A stretch of 62,792 nt of DNA, the filler included, from Hausera hauseri (lineage: Eukaryota), in the NCBI GenBank assembly GCA_046269625.1. It is 12 parts of 12 records of this genome, joined end to end, with 100 filler letters (N's around TTAATTAATTAA, not from the genome) between each part and the next. Parts side by side here need not be neighbours in the genome. Positions count along the whole stretch, not along the records: positions 32,740 to 39,364 come from JBJURY010080547.1; 11 more parts are not named here. One strand, 5' to 3'. Made by a program: the position numbers and the translations under genes. How positions within the stretch are numbered: position 1 is the stretch's first letter; the number at the start of each line of letters is the position of its first letter. Positions 14,309 through 39,464 of the stretch are shown piece after piece. Under the pieces are notes generated by a model. It made no database searches. It was not told the origin of the DNA and saw only the letters and a list, made by a program, of their open reading frames with translations.

Positions 14309-15625
14309 TTGTGGAAACTGAAGATAAATCTACATAGGATCGATTCACGAATGATGGAGAGGAAAATGTTCTATTTAATGCTAGAAAAATGGTTAACTTC
14401 GGAATTATTTCACCATATTAATGAAGATGTTAAACCACAGATCTTTTATGCTAATGATGAAAATGATTATTTGAAAATTGTTGAGGAGTTGAATGATGTT
14501 GACGAACAGACTGATGCGTTGTCCAAGTCAAGCAGTGGATTCGGAACAAACAATATTAAACTAGTCAATTTTTGAAATATAAGTATACTGACCGATTTAT
14601 GGGTCTTACATGGTGAGGCTCACGTGCCGTTCTTCGATAACATTAGTAATAATTTAACGAATTATCTGACCACGGTAAACTACGAAGATAGTGGTGTTCG
14701 ATTCATCTCTCAGAAGTGTCTGCACGCTCTCCTTATCAAATTCGATGAAGATAACTCGATAAACACAACCGTCTTGAACCGCACCTTGTGCAATTTTCGA
14801 TGGATAACGTTGGTTTGGTTGAAAGAATTTCGACTTACCGACTTTTCTGCTAAAACGCATAATTGTGTAGATATTGCTGGAGACTGTAAAGATGAACGAA
14901 AAATGATAAATGGAGTTGAAGGTATTGTTTATTATACTGTTCATCATTGTTATTACTTGTCTTATCTTTTAGATGTTGGCAGGGGTTGTGAACAGGGTGG
15001 TGAAGTGTATATGTTTACGTTAATGATTGATGGGGGTTGCACGGTTGTGACGGGACTTAAATTTGAGGTTAAGAATGGAGTTAGGTATGTTCGTCGGTTG
15101 GAGTCGGGTGGGATACAATGTAACATCGTAGGCGAAAGGCAATCGATTTGGAATGATAAGAGTTATGGTCCCGGCTTAGTGGAATTCGTGTGTGATGGTG
15201 GAATAATTGTAGGTTTTACGTGTCTGGATAAGAACACCGGTTTGAACGATAATAAATGTTACATTTACACGAATTCATTATGCAAATGTAATAAAGATTT
15301 TCCATTTCTTGGTAGCAGAGCGTGGTATGTGCTCTTCTCCGTGATTCGCAGGCATAGAACACGTGAATCATTGGTCTTTCGAAGTATCCATTTCTGTCTT
15401 CTTGTTTTTGGAACTTATTCCTTCCGTTGGAATGTAAAAATAAATGAGGAAACTTTATGTAAAATATACACGATAAGAAAATACGGTGAAGTGAATAAAA
15501 TGAAACATCGTGACTATGTCACAGAGCCGACGCAAAATTCAGAAGTTGTAATATCTTGCGCCAAGAGCGATAAATATTTAAAAAGAAAAGATGAAAATGT
15601 CTGTTTCAAAAATCGCAGAGAATAG
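14309..15625 (+). CDS. Hypothetical ORF (14309-14575 and 14624-15625 share a frame, separated by one stop)
   Basis: 333 open codons in AT-rich DNA. Gly/Cys/beta-rich middle portion. Overlaps the start of the BEL gag ORF. Confidence 0.35.
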
Positions 15626-15947
15626 ACACCGACTGGCAGAATCAGTGGTAACCGTCTGGAGAGGCGAATACGTCAGAAGGTCCTTGTTCGAGGCGAGTAA
15701 CCTTAAGAAAATAAATGGATCACAGGAATTCAAAAGAGATTCGAAGTTTAAAATTGCTGAACCTCGAGTTAAAAGGATCTGTCAAGAATCAAATACCAAC
15801 GGTGTAAAGTGGGAAAAGATATTAGAGGATTGCATACTGGAAGGAAATAAGTCACAAAATTTGCAGGAGTCGTCTAAGGCGGATGAAAGAGAAGAACTCG
15901 GCTTTAAGGATTTTGTGCAAGGAACAACAAAGACAGAGAAAAGGAAA

Positions 15948-16175
15948 TTGACGGTATTTCTTGAGACAATATCAGGAAAAATAATTGCGATATTAGTCAA
16001 AATGTCGGATAAAGTGGAGGAACTGAAGTCGATTGCCGAGGAAAGAGAGGGAATCCCAACAAACCAACAATGGTTAATTTACAATGGAAAACTACTAAAG
16101 GATTCTCGGAAACTTAGTGAATATTATATTCAAAAGGATTCAACTGTTCATTTGCAGTCGCGGTTAAAATGTGGG
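15948..16175 (+). other. Ubiquitin domain within BEL/Pao Gag ORF
   Basis: Exactly 76 aa. 36/76 identities to ubiquitin by ungapped manual alignment. C-terminus LQSRLKCG. Confidence 0.92.
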
Positions 16176-17281
16176 AGTGAATTAACTGCAGACGAACTGG
16201 AAGATGGGATATCTGAGCGACTTAAGTACATCAACGACCTTTCAGCGATTCGGAGGAAGTTAATGGATGTAAACGTGAATGATCATGAATACGAAATGTA
16301 TAATAAAAAGTACGACAAGTCGTTTACCGAGCTTCAAGGGGAGTTGAGTAAACTAGCCACCGCGGCAAGAAAGTTGAGAAAAAAGGAAAACTTCACTTTG
16401 TTAAAGAATGACATGGAGAAACTGGACGATCAGAATGAAAAAATCAACGCGATCATCTATGAGAGAAGCTCAATAGATAATAAGATGATGATCACCAAAG
16501 AAAGTTCTGAAAAGGAGAAAAGGGAAAGAGTAATATTATCAAAGTTTCAAAAATTAAAGTTGCCGAAGTTTGGCGGGCTAGTTACGAATACGATAAATGG
16601 AAAAGGACGTTTGACACATGTATCCACAAAACCTCAATGTCGGGAATATACAAGCAACTACAGCTGAATCAAAGCTTGTATGGCGAGCCAAAAAAGCTGA
16701 TTGAAAATTTCAACCTATCAGAAGAAGAGTATAAAGCGTCCTTGGATTAATTAGATTCCTATTATGGAGGTGAACAACATTGTTATGCAGCGTTTATGAC
16801 CGAAGTTATAAGATTTGTGCTAATAGAGGAGGAAAATATTAAAGGGCTAGATAAATTCGTTGCGTTGCTAGAAGGAATAATTGTAAGATTGAGAAATCTA
16901 GGGAAAACGGAAGAACTTAGTGGAGGGCTATTGTATCACAGCCTCGTGGAAAAGCATCCTGAATCACTTGTGCTTCTATAGGAAAGGCATGTGATCGAGA
17001 AAAAGTTGGATAGGACAGTCATAAAATTAAAGAATTGGATCGAGATAGAAGCGATGGTTAGGAAAAATACTGTAGAGAGAATAAGGGGAATCGAAACCTT
17101 AAATCCAAGTTAAGATGGTCAATACACATCAATAGGAGATGGAAGGTCGTACTTTGCAAAAGGATAGCAGGCTGAAAAAAGGAAATATGAAAACACGAAG
17201 TCAAAAATAAGAGATCGAGAATTTAAAAGGGAAGTACAATCTAGCCACTACAATATACAGCGAGAAGATCAATCCCAGAGA

Positions 17282-17428
17282 TGCTGGAATTTTGATAAAA
17301 ATGGGCAGTGTAAATTCGGAAAGAACTGCAAATACTTGCATCAATCTAACAAGGACGATCAAAGAAGGTTATGTTGGTACTTCGAAAAAGGGGAATGTAA
17401 GTATTGGAATAATTGTAGGTTTCTACAT
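17282..17428 (+). other. Two CCCH zinc fingers at the BEL Gag nucleocapsid position
   Basis: CWNFDKNGQCKFGKNCKYLH (C-x8-C-x5-C-x3-H) and CWYFEKGECKYWNNCRFLH (C-x7-C-x5-C-x3-H), in the same frame as the protease. Confidence 0.9.
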
Positions 17429-18916
17429 GGAAAAATGGATAACAAGGAAAAGGTCAAAAATATTTGTGACAAAGAGGAAGTAGAGAGAAAAATTGAAAGT
17501 TCTCAGGAAAACATAGCATGTAGGACAGAAGAAGATTCACTGCCACGGGCGGCAGAATATGAAAAAGGAAAAGGGACATTGAATAAGAAAAAAGGTTTTA
17601 GTGCCTCTGTGACACAAGGTTCTCAAGAGGGAAACGAAAAAGAAGAGATGGTAGCACTGAAAAGAATGGAGGTGTGGTTACAAAATGGGACAAGAATGAA
17701 GAAAGCAATACTGCTACTAAACGATGCTAGTACCGAAAGCTTCGTTGATTCAAAGTTATGCGAAGAGTTAGGGGTTAATAAGAAAACGGAAAGGTTAACA
17801 ATAACGGTTGTCGGAGAAAAAAAGACTGAGATGTCTATTGACCGGGTAAAATTGGTATTGATGAACATAGACCGATCACTGGACGTACAATTTGAAGCGC
17901 TGGCTATGAGAAATCCAACTGAAGGGATAAGGGCAGTAAATTGGTTCATAGAAAGACAAAGATAGCTAAATCTGAAAGATTTAAAGTTCCCCAAGATGTC
18001 ACACAGATTGGAAGTGGATGGTATCATTGGGGCGAATTTTATAGAATTACACAGGTCAATCAAAAAGGTATACGGTAAAAGGGGTGCACCGGTAACGCGA
18101 TTAACCCCGTTAGGTTGGACCTGTGTCGGATAAATAAAAAAGGGAAGGAAAATCATAAATAGCAATTTTGGAAGGGCCTTTTGGACAAGGACAAGAGAAA
18201 TTTAAAAAGACTTCAGCCGATTATGGGAGGGCGAGTTTAACATGATGTAAAAGAGTCTGAGAGGTCCGAACAAGACAAGAAAACAGTGAAGGGTATACTA
18301 GATAAAACGACTTACGAGGAAAATAGATACTATGTGCCATTGCCGTGGAAGGGAAGGAGACAACCTGAAATGGAAATCAACGAATGGATGGCACGAAAAA
18401 TGTTGAAAACCTTAAAGAGAAAGCTGGACAAGGATGAGACGACAAAGGCAGCATACGAAAAAGTGATAAAAGCACACGCCAAGGAAGGGAAGAGGAGCAA
18501 GAAGAACAAGAGATAGCTTGGCTGTTACTGCACNNNNNNNNNNTATTACGAATGAGAAAACGACCATGAGTTGTCATATGCGATATCCAGTAAATGTTCT
18601 TACAGATTAAGGTCAAACAAGAGGATAAGAGATATCTAAGATTTCTGTGGTATAAGGACGGGAAACTCAGAACATACGAGTTAAATTGGTTGATATTTGG
18701 ATTGAACTCCTCTCCGTCTCCGGCGCAATTGATATCAAGACACAACGCCGAAAAATCCAAAATAAAATTCCCCAGAGCCGTAAAAACAATAGAGAATTCT
18801 ACGTACATGGACGATTNNNNNNNNNNNNNNNNNNNNNNNNNNNNNNNNNNNNNNNNNNNNTTAATTAATTAANNNNNNNNNNNNNNNNNNNNNNNNNNNN
18901 NNNNNNNNNNNNNNNN

Positions 18917-32639: not shown

Positions 32640-33708
32640 NNNNNNNNNNNNNNNNNNNNNNNNNNNNNNNNNNNNNNNNNNNNTTAATTAATTAANNNNN
32701 NNNNNNNNNNNNNNNNNNNNNNNNNNNNNNNNNNNNNNNCGTAGATTACGTTGGGAAATGGAAAGTTTCTATAAACAATATCTGTGAGAATGGGAAAAAC
32801 TACCATAAATTTAGTGAGCTGAAATTTCTGGAGGGTTTGAGTAATGATCCGAATGTTATTTTGGAAGATAGTGGTGCAAACAAATTTTCTTCTAATAATA
32901 AATCATGACAAAATAAATATCACGGTGATAACCGCGGATGTACATCTCGATCTAACCAATATCAATGTGCTACGGACAGATACAATGTGTCAACACTACT
33001 ACACTCAAAATTAGCGTCTTATATTTTCATCTCAGACAGTTGCAACAGTACATGTATTCTGACTGATTTGAAACGAATCCATAAAATAAAAAATGTAAAT
33101 CGACTTATTAGTTGGGCCCCTCTCAGTGGAAAGCGGCCGCGAAAGTTACACTACGTCGCATTTCATCTAATCGAAAATAATCAGGAAAATGAGTTAGTCT
33201 TACAATGCCTGGCCAATTTCAATTTTCTGTCCCATATTCAATTTTTCGGAATTCAGGAATTAATCATTTGGTTGAAATTGTCTTCAAAACGTTATCCATC
33301 AAATCAAATAATTGATATTATTAAGAGTTGTGTAGTGTTTATTGAATCATGGTTAGATTTCGATGGTTTGCAATCCCTAAGACAACAAATTTTGAAGGAT
33401 ATAATTTTTTATATAATCCACTTGAAGTTATGGCAGGACTGAGACATTCTGACCATAACAAAAATGAAACAGTACAATACTTAAATTGTACGAAACAGCC
33501 TGGAGGTTCGATCAAATATTTCATTAACAATAATACTGAAAGTCGTTGTCGAATGCCAATTTTGAAAAGTTTATTCAAAGATGATGAGGGTAACTCTGTG
33601 ACAACTCAGACCTCACAGTCCATTGGAATTTTTCAAAGTAATTTTATAATTGGATATCTTTCTACATTTACGGCGCATTTGATAAACTTTATAGCTTAGG
33701 GACCGAGC

Positions 33709-36700
33709 TTGCTCGATCCCGCTGCACTGCATCCCCTTTCTCTTATTTTTTCTAATAATAAACATTTGTATAAACTGAGTGCTGCATGCAAACATACGGC
33801 ACACATTCTTTATTATGCATTTTCTTCCTTTTTAGGCTCCTCCGATTTTTATTCCATGCACAATGGCCTGACTCTGTTATCTTCCGACTCTCTGTCATCT
33901 TTTGCATTCGAAAAACATTCAATGATTCTCACTATTCTTCTTCGTATCCGTGGTGGATCAAACTCTGACCCTTCTGCCGAAAACTTAACCAAAACTAGAT
34001 CTCGTCGTCGTCCTGCCGACCCTACATTAAACCCATCTCCAAATCTCCGTTGCAAGGATTTTTTTTTCTCGACAAAACAAATTCTTGCCGTACCAAGTTA
34101 CAATTTCAATTGCAAGGGCTTAAAGCCAATTATATCACAGACTTTTTTTGCGGGCGAACATATTGCTGCTACTACTTCCGGCTAATATCAAGCAGCAAAT
34201 CAATAATCTTGCCGACATACTAACCTCTTCAAATCTATATGATATGCTTTATGAATTAGTTCTGCACATTATCGACCCTTCCCTTGACAGAATAATTCAT
34301 AAATACTTTAATGAACATTCCATCGGAAATTAAAAATCATCGGATTTCCTTATAACTGCAATATCCCAACTGAGTTCTTTAGGAGTCAGTCCTATAAACA
34401 ATGCCGATCTTCGTCGATATTTTCTTTCATCCTTGCCAACCTCCATCAGAGCGCTGCTCACGGTAGTAGACGACTCAACGGCCCATGAAAAGCTCACCTT
34501 ATTGGCAGACAAAAAGTTTAACATTTTGCAATCTAATAGTCAACAACCAGTAGCTTTAGCAACCGCTGACACACCTTCACACACAGATAACACTTCATTT
34601 TTACAAAAATCGCAAATGATGCATCAACTGTTTGACGAGTTACAGCCGCCAATTTTGGCCATTATTACCAAACTAAATAATCTTAATGGGCCTCGACAAA
34701 GTGAAACCAGACCTTCAAGGGAGAGAAGCATTTCCAGACACTCAACTCGATCTATTTCACCTGACGGACGCATGATTTGTCTCTATCACACGCGATTTTG
34801 AAGGGATGCTAGCAAATGTTTTTTGGGTTGTCGGTTCTACAGCAAACAATACGCTGTGGACAACCCCATTTGCGTCTATCACAATAAGTTTCTGTCACGG
34901 GCTACATCATGTGTGCCTGGCTGTAAATATTACAACGATAAATTTCCTCGCTTTTCCTTCTCCTATTCGTTTTCTCCAAAACCTTCAAAAAAGTAATAAT
35001 GACGCCAGATTTTACGCCACATTCTGGCTCAGGCAATATCGCTCAATCGTCTGGCCGTTTTAACACCACCTCTGCAGTCTTTCTATTGAAAGCTGTACTG
35101 TTATGCAGAGATACTTTACATATCGACTTCCTTAGAGACTCAGGAGCTGCCTTTTCGCTCCTTGCCTTGTCTTTCGTTCCTACATCGACTATGATTTCCT
35201 GTCCACCCCTTTTTACTGCCAGTGGTCAACTGATGCATGTTGCAGGAACCATAGAATTAACTTTCACATTCGCCAACTTGCCGGATAAATTTGTCTGGAA
35301 GTTCCATGTGGTCAACATTAAATCTCACATAATAGGCTCAGATTTTCTCACCGCACATGATCTATTGGTATATTGCAAATACAGCTGTCTTTTAAGCAGG
35401 AACTCAATTGCAACTCCAAACATGTGTCTTGTGGACAACTTAGCGAGCAATTCACTGCACTCATCTATTAACCTGTTGAACGCTTCGTCATCTATAAAAA
35501 ACTTCCGATAAAGCCGCCAATATTTCCATTATGAACGACAATCATAAGTCTATCCTAAAACAAAAATCCAAATTAGGCGTCAACAGTATCGATGCCAGTA
35601 GCTTTTCGTCAATCATTGAAGCTGTTCTCTCTAATGATATGCCTCATTCATTCTTGTTTCTAGACTCCAATCTTAAATCATACATCATAACGTCTTGCTT
35701 TCGCATAGTTAAAAGGGACATCAACTTCAAGCCTCCATCCACAACTTATCATTACATAGTAACAGAGCGTCATAGGCCGATCAAACAAAAGGTCAAACCT
35801 TTGTCGCCACGCAAACGTAAAACTGTGGAACAGGAATTTAATGAACTGGAAAGGTCTGGCATCATTCAAAGATTGAATTTACCGTGGGCGTCTCCTCTTC
35901 ATGTAGTGGAAAAGAAAGATAGTACCTATAGGCCATGTGGCGAATATCGACAATTAAACAATCTAACTATTACTGATGCCTATCCACTACCACTCATTAA
36001 AGATATTCTTCATGGCCTTAATAACAACAATACCTATTTTATCATTGATCTGCACAATGCCTACCATCAAATTCTTGTTACCCCTGATGACATTCCAAAA
36101 ACTGCTGTCATCACACCATTTGGCCTTTACAAATACATCTTCATGCCTTTCGGCCTATACAGTGTTCTCAGACCTTTCAGCGCCACATTGACACTGTTCT
36201 TTATGGTCTTGATTTTGCTCACACATACATAGATGACATATTAGTCGCTTCCAGCTCCATCAAACAACAACATGAGTACCTTAGAATTATCTTCCACAAA
36301 TTGCATCAAAGCAACCTGCAAATTAATTTCGACAAATGAAATTTCTTCCAGAAGCGCGCCAACTTCTTAGGCCACATAATTACTCCCAAAGGGCATTCGC
36401 CCCAGCTTAACCGCTTACAACAATTAAAAAATGTGACGTTGTCAACTACTACTACCGATATGAGGAGTTTTTTAAGGACATTGCATTTCTTACACAAATA
36501 CGTGCCACACTGCTCCGAACTAACAGGACGTTTCACAAACATCTCATCTGGGAAGAAAAGACAATTAATCCATTGGACTCACGATCTAGTAAACCAATTT
36601 GATCGCCTTCGTGAAGGTCTGAAAACTGTGGAAATCTTGGCCTTTCCAAAACCAAACGCTGAACTCATATTAACTGCCAATGCCTCAACCACAGCAACTG

Positions 36701-38880
36701 GTGCAATATTACACCAAATATACAATGGCGTCGATGAACCATTAGAAGTTTATTCCTGAAAGCTCACGCAACCGGAAAGCTAATACTCAACATTTGATCG
36801 TAAACTCTTGGCTGTAGTTCTAGCGGTAAAGCATTTCAAGCACTTGCTTCTTTCACGTCAATTTACCATCGAAACCGACCGTAAGCCTCTACTTCACATA
36901 ATGACTTTGAAACAGCCCTCACCCAGACAAAAACGTTAGATATCATACTTGTAAAAGTTTAGTTTTTACATGAAATATATTTCAGGCACCGAAAATTTAA
37001 TAGCGGACTTTCTTTCGCAGTCGGTTAACTCAATTACCTTTCAGCCAATTTTCTCCCCTGAGATCCTGAGAAACAATCAGCCATTATCTGATAATCTTCA
37101 AGCTTTTATATCTGTTAAAATCATCGATGGCATTGCTTATGACACTTCTAACTCGACCAACAAGAAAATCATTCTTGCTCCATTGCTACAAAAGACAGCT
37201 TTCAATCACTTTCACTCTCTTCATCATTTGGGTTCAAAAGCCACATTTCGACTACTGCAACGCCACGGTGTATGGCCAACTATGCATACCAATGTACAGA
37301 TCTGGGTCAAGGAATGTGCAGCATGTCAACAATACAAGGTTCATAAACATCTCAAACCACTACTCTATCACTTCCCTGACACTTCTCGTTTTGAAACCGT
37401 GCATTTAGATCTTGTGGGTTCTCTACTTACCGATAACTGCTATCAATATATTTTATCCATGATGGGTTGAGCTTCGCGCTGGCTAAAAGCCGTTTCGCTT
37501 CGATCAACCAAAATTGACTCAGTAGCAGATGCATTTATCAAGATATAAGTCAGCCGTTTTGGTTTATCACGTTACATCATAACGGTCCAAGGTCCACAAT
37601 ATGAAGCTGATCTTTTCCAATCGCTTGTGAAGCACTTGAGGATAGCCCATCTCCATACGACGCCGTACCATCTCCAAGCAAATGGTTTTCTCGAGAAATT
37701 TCATCGCACCATGAAGATTTCATTAAAAATCCTGGCAAGGAACAATCATAACTGGACCTCAATTCTTCCTCTTGTCCTACTCGGTTGAAGCAATAGGCCA
37801 TATACCACCACAGGCTGCGCTCCAGCTAAGGCTCACTTTGAGACACCAGTTCGTGCACTATTTGAGCTTTCGAATCTCGATGAAACTCCGTCAGATAAAA
37901 TTATTCTTGTGGCACAGTCCCACTTTGCTATTGTCAACTCGAATGCCTTCTGTCGTCTTATAAATAAAGAAAAATCTTATATTCCAGAGGACTTATACTG
38001 AGCCAAGTTTGTATGGCTGAAGGATCCGTCACCTTCTGGTTTTTGGCCTCAATACGTTGGACTTTACAAACTACTCAATCACTCTTCACACACTGCTACT
38101 ATTTTACGCAAGTACAAACCCTATAATGTATACATTTCTAATCTTAAGCCAGCCTTCTTCCTTGACGATGACCAGGATAACAGCCCTGTTGCAAATCCCA
38201 ACTTTAACTTCTCTACTCTCGAGCCATCATATAATTTCCTTGATGATTTTAATCCTTCGCAGCATTCACTCTCGCGTCACAATCAGCTCTCTTCACTTCC
38301 GTCATCATCCACTGCTTCCTCACTATCTGCCTCTCCGTCATTGCCTGAACATTCACTACTCATTTCACATTTATCTCGCGATTCACTGCCATCTCCAGTT
38401 TCGTCTTCTTTACGTGATCCTTTTATTTTTTCAGCTTCTTCTCCATTTTTATCTCATCATGAGGCATCCTCCCAGAACACCACAAAACCCACGTATTCTC
38501 TAGCTCAAACAACTTCACAAGCTCCAGTAACATCTAACAGGTCACACCAAGTGACATTTAGCACTTACAGCAGGGAAAAGTTCATAGATGGGGTCCAACG
38601 CCTAACACGGACCAAAACCGAAGAGGTACAAGTTCTTCTTCTTTCTACTATAATCTTCATTTATTCTTCTCTTTATAGTCTTAATATGGCCACGGAGGCA
38701 ATGATGTGGTACCGTGGTCACCGGCATAGCTCGTTTCCTCAGAGGCGAAAGTTAAACTTCAAGCGGAAATTTCAATCTCTTAGACTCGTTCATGATCGTC
38801 TATCAAATCGTTTATCAAATCAAACAATGAAGGACTATTGTAAGGTTCCACCTTACAAAAAAGGGGAAAAAAGGAAATAA
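33709..38880 (+). mobile_element. Ty3/gypsy CsRn1-like element: UBL-gag-PR-RT-RH-IN, decayed, with start of the 3' LTR near 38705
   Basis: Gag CHCC motifs, protease FLRDSGAAFS, RT WASPLHVV..YRPCGEYR..MPFGL..YIDD, RNase H LTANAST, integrase H..H..C..C, VHLDLVG, VGLYKL..ISNLKPAF. Confidence 0.9.
33730..33957 (+). other. Putative ubiquitin-like domain ending LRIRGG, N-terminal to Gag
   Basis: HNGLTLLSSDSLSSFAFEKHSMILTILLRIRGG aligns with ubiquitin [32 protein letters not shown]. The N-terminal half is divergent. Confidence 0.6.
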
Positions 38881-39464
38881 AAATAAATCATACCAAACAT
38901 GTTAAATAAATTCCGACACTAACAACAAAATTTAAAATAAAATTTAAAATCCACACACCCAATAAAATTTACAAAACAATAATATCACTCCATTTTTACT
39001 GTTTCCATATTTCATTAATTACTTGATAAATGCTGATCATAAATATCACAAAAAATGCTAACGAAAAATTAAACTTTTAATTAAGCAAGCAAACAACACT
39101 TCAGATGAATAACAAAAATCGGGTAACCTGAAAATAACAATATAAAATCACGAGTTCGCTAAACATCAAAAAAAAATTTTATTAAATTTCCCACACGAAA
39201 AATAAAAGCGAAAAGGGGAATTGCAAGTGCTAGGGCAATCAGCACTTGTAGCCAACGAAAAAATCACAAAATAAAATCTGTGGATTTAAACTCATTTGTT
39301 TAAATCCACAGTTTAAAAGTAGGGAGAAATTATTCAAAAAGAAAACTCTTCAAAAAAAGAAACTNNNNNNNNNNNNNNNNNNNNNNNNNNNNNNNNNNNN
39401 NNNNNNNNTTAATTAATTAANNNNNNNNNNNNNNNNNNNNNNNNNNNNNNNNNNNNNNNNNNNN

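Follow-up and report, generated by a model that had tools for sequence, protein, structure and literature searches.

The window analyzed in this work is a stretch of 62,792 nucleotides of Hausera hauseri DNA (assembly GCA_046269625.1), consisting of 12 contigs with N-linkers between them, in which eukaryotic mobile elements are abundant. One of these contigs (C8, positions 32740-39364) carries a decayed copy of a CsRn1-like long terminal repeat (LTR) retrotransposon of the Ty3/gypsy superfamily, in which Gag is preceded by a diverged ubiquitin-like domain (UBL) ending in Gly-Gly (GG; Table 1). A stop-free frame (33700-34182) covered 76 codons up to LLRIRGG and continued through a Ser and a linker of about 28 residues into PNLRCKDFF, just as the first-pass annotation of this DNA had described. 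Downstream, the Gag core was frameshifted at T-runs near 34059 and 34143 and interrupted by in-frame stops at 34331 and 34799, the first of its two CHCC motifs was broken by a stop, and the copy present in the window is dead. Pfam matches in pol corresponded to reverse transcriptase (RT; RVT_1, E 6.5e-8), RNase H (RT_RNaseH_2, E 1.9e-9) and integrase (Integrase_H2C2, E 7e-13), with a weak match for the protease (RVP, E 0.11). RT, RNase H and integrase were also present in pol of a relative, L014, where Pfam detected no deubiquitinase (DUB). The element is best explained as a member of an env-less clade with a double CHCC motif in Gag and the order leader-UBL-GG-Gag in its first open reading frame (ORF1).

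A total of 9,844 contig pieces of run X1, which may represent the source sample and whose depth is not equal to copy number, mapped on C8, mostly with 80-99% identity. The TAG codon closing the frame upstream of the UBL was missing from all eight contigs of this run listed at 33697, and T-run lengths varied (four contigs at one run and six at the other). This variation pointed to a large family and indicated that the breaks of the window copy are not common to all copies. Contigs C1 and C12, previously regarded as holding further copies of the family, turned out to be distant relatives, matching C8 only in pol with 63-65% nucleotide identity and without gag.

Neither Pfam nor PDB sequences gave a ubiquitin match for the segment 33730-33957, the Atlas search and a longer-homolog search gave none either, and no BLASTP match was obtained between this segment and the ubiquitin of the BEL-like element in contig C4 (see below). 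The closest unbroken relative, P0191, displayed 42% identity to the window UBL plus linker (E 3e-19) and has UBL, linker and Gag in one frame; by tblastn it spanned three consecutive frames of the window (33724-34068, 34062-34148, and 34145-34957), switching at the two T-runs. The earlier claim that gag continues past the frameshifts was thus borne out. In unbroken members, P0191 and others, the UBL shares the reading frame of gag, so that the out-of-frame arrangement named beforehand as a refutation did not occur. A family profile of the UBL, from which the window, P0003 and P0004 (two of its closest relatives) and the near-canonical P0031 had been left out, was compared with the 1081 six-frame segments of the window, and only two of them exceeded the inclusion threshold, namely the BEL ubiquitin (E 1e-11) and the frame 33700-34182 (E 1.5e-5). 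A candidate UBL at 61771-62037 in C12 (E 0.004, and 0.12 with a control profile) lacked GG and was rejected.

The AlphaFold model obtained from an alignment of 34 rows displayed the order strand-strand-helix-strand-strand-strand characteristic of ubiquitin, with block pLDDT values of 83-94 for residues 21-80, in agreement with the beta-grasp fold that the first-pass annotation had expected for this segment. With Foldseek, 398 structures matched at E <= 0.001, among them ISG15, ubiquitin, and SUMO with E 1e-5, and VIA-align gave a Z of 10.7 and an rmsd of 1.5 over 71 residues. This alignment held near-canonical ubiquitins; a control prediction from 28 rows, without the near-canonical and Pfam-matching members known then, presented the same topology, and all Foldseek rows listed for it belonged to the ubiquitin family. 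The predicted beta-grasp fold is well supported at the level of the family and a little less so when the window copy is taken alone. A Met occupies the position of Ile44 in the window UBL, which belongs to the beta-grasp superfamily without reaching the cut-off of ubiquitin proper (PF00240) or having the Ile44 patch. The curated cut-off of PF00240 was exceeded by some relatives (P0031, P0155, L012, P0098, and P0111).

The distribution of the UBL was analyzed among Gag homologs. The window Gag, with X at both stops, was used as phmmer query against 1.84 billion representatives and retrieved 620 proteins at E <= 0.001, the best 150 of which were used for the following counts. Two CHCC motifs were present in 45 of these 150, one in 103, and none in 2. 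When the conserved Gag Trp anchor was aligned and at least 60 residues were available upstream, a UBL-type end, defined as the hydrophobic pattern plus GG, appeared among the matches listed in 29 of 29 double-CHCC Gags (including P0004, which ends after the first motif) vs. 2 of 32 single-CHCC Gags; the proteins left out of this count were 28 without the anchor, 2 without CHCC, and the rest, including four double-CHCC Gags, with a short upstream part. Also among the matches listed, the distance from GG to the first conserved Trp of Gag was 24-60 residues in the double-CHCC relatives. The UBL-type GG was missing from 30 of the 32 ordinary CsRn1-type Gags, which lends no support to the suggestion of a general strategy.

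Pfam identified ubiquitin in 8 of 30 scanned homologs, above the cut-off only in P0031 (E 4e-23), and DUF7041 (PF23055) in 24 of the 30, mostly under the curated cut-off; the Gag pieces of the window itself gave no PF23055 match in Pfam. Relatives of the element were found neither in viral contigs nor in prokaryote genome contigs. In quick trees of Gag, the double-CHCC group was placed apart from single-CHCC Gags (SH-aLRT 100). Two single-CHCC DUF7041 Gags, P0098 and P0111, presented ubiquitin and GG directly 5' of Gag; a separate origin of their UBL found no support, a single clade with the double-CHCC group not being rejected (p-AU 0.46).

Conservation within the UBL was concentrated at its C-terminal end. 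With a median pairwise identity of only 18%, the two final Gly (G75 and G76, in ubiquitin numbering) were kept in 34 of the 34 rows of alignment A4, L/I73 in 32, and R/K72 in 29, and much lower values were obtained for R74 (9/34), I44 (2/34), and R42 (2/34). The UBL thus has the conserved C-terminal Gly-Gly of a type I (processed) ubiquitin-like precursor, the cleavage tail being kept and the receptor-binding patch around Ile44 lost. The invariance of the di-Gly across the whole clade fits processing by DUBs. These enzymes cut poorly before Pro, and Pro never followed GG in 44 members, where this position was occupied by S (19), G (5), T (5), M (4), N (4), A (3), or D, Q, K, and V (1 each). 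A Ser after the di-Gly had been singled out as a common feature; it was present in only 19 of 44, and the three closest relatives of the window element have Thr, Met, and Ser. Ratios of dN/dS were higher for the UBL (0.31-0.46) than for Gag (0.03-0.12), each being computable in 5 of 8 pairs, and the sole unsaturated pair gave 0.82 for the LTR part, 0.29 for the leader, 0.44 for the UBL, and 0.09 for Gag.

In order to examine the DNA upstream of the UBL, 21 loci were collected from metagenomes by a pattern scan for the Gag core of one sub-clade (A3), which is not the closest sub-family of the window element; upstream DNA was ignored in the choice. The motif TGGTGTCAGAAG, which we take to be a primer binding site (PBS) of tRNA-Leu type, was found in 15 of the 21 loci, and 13 presented both this motif and the UBL. 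Of 12 loci analyzed, 10 had no gag-frame stop between PBS and UBL, a stretch of 123-486 nt with 70-81% AT; the other frames of these 10 loci contained stops in 18 of 20 cases. The probability of an open leader arising by chance ranged from <0.0005 to 0.06 per locus under a first-order Markov model. In the same 10 loci the gag frame remained open for 111-387 nt further upstream into the 5' LTR, always with an ATG in the LTR. L021, open from an LTR ATG through to GG, was the 11th case (11 of 13 loci), and in L016 and L018 the frame was open from the LTR ATG across the PBS until a single frame break. As for the remaining 8 loci, L002, L010, and L013 were open to the contig edge and five had no UBL. 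The PBS lay in phase 0, 2, and 1 relative to the gag frame in 7, 2, and 1 loci, respectively. The occurrence of all three phases indicated that it is the openness of the frame that is preserved and not the encoded peptide. A TATA-like LTR motif together with a known frame was available for 11 loci, and in 9 of them the next ATG downstream of the motif belonged to the gag frame. Outside the A3 sub-clade, where only proteins were available, a PBS-like peptide appeared 5' of the UBL in 20 of 40, again in all three phases, these proteins being gene calls that may contain introns.

Short tandem repeats that keep the frame open were observed within the translated LTR part or the leader of L005 (450-640), L008 (1300-1480), L012 (1120-1220), and L006 (2315-2488). 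At the other end of gag, L001-L013 displayed a conserved A-AAA-AAC heptamer directly 5' of the stop codon of gag, where pol overlaps it in frame -1.

The corresponding region of the window copy was less informative. No PBS motif was detected in C8 at two mismatches or fewer and no 5' LTR was recognized, the open stretch of 117 codons upstream of the UBL (Table 1) having no match to the 3' LTR or to Pfam. It is possibly either a remnant of an LTR-initiated leader or unrelated flanking DNA, and as such it is compatible with the leader model, no more. Near 33503, TGGAGGTTC may resemble a tRNA-Gln site; its distance to the UBL is about that between the PBS-like peptide and the UBL of P0191. Upstream of the element, 177 open codons in a different frame (32909-33439), without Pfam match, were covered by several variant contigs of run X1. 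At the 3' end, the arrangement of polypurine tract (PPT) and LTR start recurred by inspection in C12 and in relatives, the latter showing PPT-TGT...PBS as collapsed circular assemblies with one LTR. None of the loci included both element ends with their flanks, where the 4-bp target-site duplication of the CsRn1 clade would lie. A Ser/Pro-rich integrase tail ending in a common basic-V-(T/S)-F motif was located shortly 5' of the PPT in C8 (38002-38877, where the frame continues beyond the probable LTR start), in C12 (60521-61078), and at the pol ends of L002-L018.

Five members of the A3 sub-clade (P0031, P0155, L008, L012, and L018) contained a near-canonical ubiquitin, with Pfam E-values of 1e-23 to 1e-24 in the three scanned. 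They grouped together by their UBL (57% mean identity vs. 22% to diverged UBLs) and were interleaved with diverged-UBL members by Gag; thus, L018 and P0159 shared 72% identity in Gag and 17% in the UBL, and close elements were 72-76% identical in Gag and 17-28% in the UBL. A single Gag clade of the five was weakly rejected (p-AU 0.025), under a simple model and for a group named after seeing the tree. All five lay inside one subgroup of nine rows, the diverged UBLs of which resemble those outside it. The simplest reading would be that host ubiquitin was recaptured once or more and then exchanged between elements.

A ubiquitin-Gag fusion was also observed in the BEL-like element of contig C4, so that such fusions occur in two superfamilies, Ty3/gypsy and BEL. 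BEL/Pao elements are metazoan, and finding one among these contigs suggests that the host is an animal. The near-canonical ubiquitin of C4 (PF00240, E 6e-20, 15954-16175) starts about 125 codons into the BEL-like ORF (15582-16664), followed by weak DUF1759 matches (Pfam, E 0.002 and 0.017) and, further along, by two CCCH fingers (17168-17962), and the order leader, ubiquitin, Gag is the same as in C8. Of the convergence that had been proposed, the presence of the fusion in both superfamilies is supported and convergence on cleavage is not, the C4 domain, described earlier as ending in di-Gly, reading Cys-Gly before Ser. No relatives of this ORF were retrieved from the Atlas, where the search came back blank.

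In the ubiquitin- and FUBI-ribosomal protein precursors and in the ubiquitin fusion technique, UBL-GG/X is cut by host DUBs for any X except Pro; those precursors start at the Met of ubiquitin, whereas the element has a long variable leader ahead of the UBL. In yeast Ty1, gag likewise begins in the LTR and includes the PBS; Ty1 is copia-type, retains this region as a part of Gag whose phase does not vary, and lacks a UBL. By the published characters of the CsRn1 clade (CsRn1, PwRn1, and AgCR; PMC2582038), namely a single CX2HX9CX3C Gag motif and a tRNA-Trp PBS, the element shares the CHCC motif, the DUF7041-type N-domain of Gag and the order protease, RT, RNase H, integrase, and its relatives share the gag/pol overlap with a -1 shift. 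It differs by its two CHCC motifs and by an ORF1 that starts in the LTR and carries UBL-GG, and the PBS of its relatives, TGGTGTCAGAAG, differs from the Trp-type motif of that paper, in which the word ubiquitin has 0 occurrences. With the tRNA-Trp feature failing and the motif doubled, we call the element CsRn1-like and not a member of the clade.

A parallel for the proposed function comes from cytopathic pestiviruses (for example BVDV Osloss, CP1, and CP Rit), in which a ubiquitin acquired by the virus, with an unrelated peptide ahead of it, is cleaved by hydrolases of the cell to yield the authentic N-terminus of NS3 (PMC8310069). Here too, a captured ubiquitin with an unrelated peptide ahead would have its downstream N-terminus made by host hydrolases. 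The pestivirus insertions are recent, near-identical and confined to single strains, whereas the fusion of the element is an ancient and fixed trait of a clade, has diverged to about 18% identity, and precedes a capsid protein; cleavage was shown in the former and is only presumed in the latter. Ginger DNA transposons, which carry OTU or Ulp1 proteases (PMC2836005), also took up components of the ubiquitin/SUMO system, the protease in their case and the substrate in the clade studied here. Literature searches aimed at a ubiquitin-Gag fusion in retrotransposons listed no description of one in titles or the beginnings of abstracts, and Repbase or GyDB entries, outside this search, may mention such a domain; the word ubiquitin was also absent from PMC6338049, on accessory domains, in a term search. 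The arrangement leader-UBL-GG-Gag thus appears to be undescribed.

The data directly support the fold of the UBL, its invariant di-Gly, the loss of the Ile44 patch, the fusion to Gag in one frame and, in the DNA of one sub-clade, a reading frame open from an LTR ATG across the PBS and the AT-rich leader into the UBL. The LTR-initiated open leader, which the first-pass annotation had missed, gives the UBL fusion a likely purpose. We propose, as the probable though by no means certain explanation, that host DUBs cut after GG and free Gag from its variable leader. The ribosome would start at the first AUG near the cap, within the LTR, and translation would cross RNA that also serves as R/U5, PBS, and packaging leader; a host DUB would then cut behind GG, and Gag and frameshifted Gag-Pol would be freed with a fixed N-terminus, irrespective of the content of the leader. 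The UBL would serve as a signal for processing taken over from elsewhere, comparable to the ubiquitin of ribosomal protein precursors and of cytopathic pestiviruses, and its drift, with occasional refreshing from host ubiquitin, could be accounted for because only the fold and an R-L-x-G-G tail would be needed. More tentatively, and with less confidence than we have in the cleavage itself, an old clade of animal retrotransposons may hand over the making of the Gag N-terminus to host DUBs, translating its LTR, primer site and packaging RNA, removing the resulting leader by means of a captured ubiquitin and renewing this module by recapture and swapping, with BEL/Pao and perhaps a single-CHCC lineage having reached the same design separately.

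Several observations weigh against this interpretation. In the control fold the best Foldseek E was 0.04, and the strong divergence of many UBLs makes it uncertain whether host DUBs would recognize them. Four double-CHCC proteins (P0010, P0022, P0026, and P0034) start at a Met within the linker, through truncated gene calls or a real loss of the UBL. In 7 of 44 members GG is followed by N, D, Q, or K, which would be destabilizing N-termini by N-degron rules, and dS was saturated in most of the pairs used for dN/dS. The leader model rests on relatives, the window copy having no recognizable 5' LTR or PBS, and the 13 loci behind it belong to one sub-clade and three assemblies and include the near-pairs L001/L007, L004/L016, and L009/L021, so that they are not 13 independent tests. 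Finally, the TATA-like motif was defined after inspection of the sequences, and L006 violates the first-ATG rule.

Other functions for the UBL would account for part of these data. The released leader-UBL-GG could itself be the point, as a conjugatable modifier or as a decoy for host E1, E2, or DUB that blunts ubiquitin-based restriction. R72 is an E1 determinant, and the retention of a free GG end and of R/K72 (29/34), the near-canonical ubiquitin of five members and some constraint on the leader (dN/dS 0.29 in the sole unsaturated pair) would suit such a role; it is nevertheless unlikely, as the residues kept in so few rows (Ile44 and Arg42 in 2/34, Arg74 in 9/34), UBL surfaces with large differences among closely related elements (Gag 72-76%, UBL 17-28%) and a leader varying in length and reading phase all speak against it. 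We also consider it rather unlikely that the UBL is a dosage or stability device, lifting the yield and folding of Gag while the residue after GG sets its half-life through the N-degron pathway, with the open leader as a side effect. Fusion to ubiquitin does raise yield in expression technology, and S, G, T, M, A, or V, which are stabilizing residues, follow GG in 37 of 44 members; the other 7 have a non-stabilizing residue, however, and the open frame that extends back into the LTR in 11 of 13 loci would be left unexplained.

Retention of the UBL as an integral N-terminal domain of Gag, matrix-like or an adaptor for ESCRT, the proteasome, or chromatin factors, is improbable: integral UBLs usually lose GG, which is invariant here despite a median identity of 18%, and the uncut product would bear 100-260 hydrophobic leader residues, the sequence of which changes from element to element. 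Purifying selection along the UBL, integral UBL domains among the top structural neighbors, and the CG in place of GG in the BEL copy of C4 are the points in its favor. Cleavage at or near GG by the aspartic protease of the element, without host machinery, would agree with the established maturation of Gag in Ty3/gypsy elements, which encode such an enzyme, yet retropepsins favor hydrophobic residues at the cut and would have no need of a folded UBL ending in R-L-x-G-G, making this very improbable. That non-coding leader DNA merely resembles ubiquitin by chance, as the lack of a direct Pfam, PDB-sequence or Atlas match for the window segment and the few Met codons near the start of the UBL might suggest, is refuted for practical purposes by the in-frame homologs, in which the UBL is conserved and, in several members, a near-canonical ubiquitin occupies the same position.

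LTR elements are generally assumed to mature Gag with their own protease, and Gag usually starts after the primer site. The family trait described here is strong and the mechanism proposed for it is specific. The ubiquitin cut site has stayed intact in a domain that has otherwise drifted to about 18% identity, which implies that a host protease takes part in the life cycle, and the clade shows how an RNA can keep LTR, PBS, and packaging signals within a translated frame without constraining the protein. If this processing is indeed outsourced to DUBs, retrotransposition would require these enzymes and could be targeted at this step. The members constitute a natural series from near-canonical to barely recognizable ubiquitin in which the minimal requirements of DUBs could be studied. 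They also carry a warning for annotation, since Pfam misses the majority of these UBLs and gene prediction joins them to unrelated host exons.

Table 1. Features of the C8 element and of the ubiquitin domain of C4, in window positions.
Feature	Position	Strand	Basis
Diverged ubiquitin-like (beta-grasp) domain, end LLRIRGG	33730..33957	+	P0191 alignment, family profile, AlphaFold/Foldseek/VIA
Gly-Gly/Ser, putative cleavage site	33952..33960	+	GG in 34/34 rows of A4
Low-confidence linker; would-be N-terminus of mature Gag	33958..34050	+	Drop of block pLDDT from 76 to 58
DUF7041/CsRn1-like Gag core, with frameshifts and stops	34051..34990	+	phmmer, PF23055 in homologs, three-frame tblastn
Two tandem CHCC (CX2HX9CX3C) motifs, 34778-34831 and 34871-34924	34778..34924	+	Read from the frame
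Broken pol, Ty3/gypsy order protease, RT, RNase H, integrase	35119..37341	+	Pfam
Probable PPT and 3' LTR start (TGTGG)	38694..38709	+	Inspection only
117 open codons in the UBL frame, closed by a single TAG (33697-33699)	33346..33696	+	Frame reading
Near-canonical ubiquitin domain in BEL-like ORF, end Cys-Gly/Ser	15954..16178	+	PF00240 E 6e-20 (15954-16175); codons read

Other mobile elements were noted elsewhere in the window. In C9 (40065-41687), a fragmented gene for a fusion glycoprotein of Monjiviricetes type (PF24664, E 1e-12) was located 5' of gypsy-like protease, RT, and integrase pieces. The minus strand of C6 (24754-25839) encodes an organellar/viral-type DNA polymerase B (PF03175, E 6e-15), probably of a Polinton-like element. 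Long inverted or nested repeats, MITE-like or satellite-like, were present in C1 (2850-2978 and 4189-4316) as well as in C2, C10, and C11.

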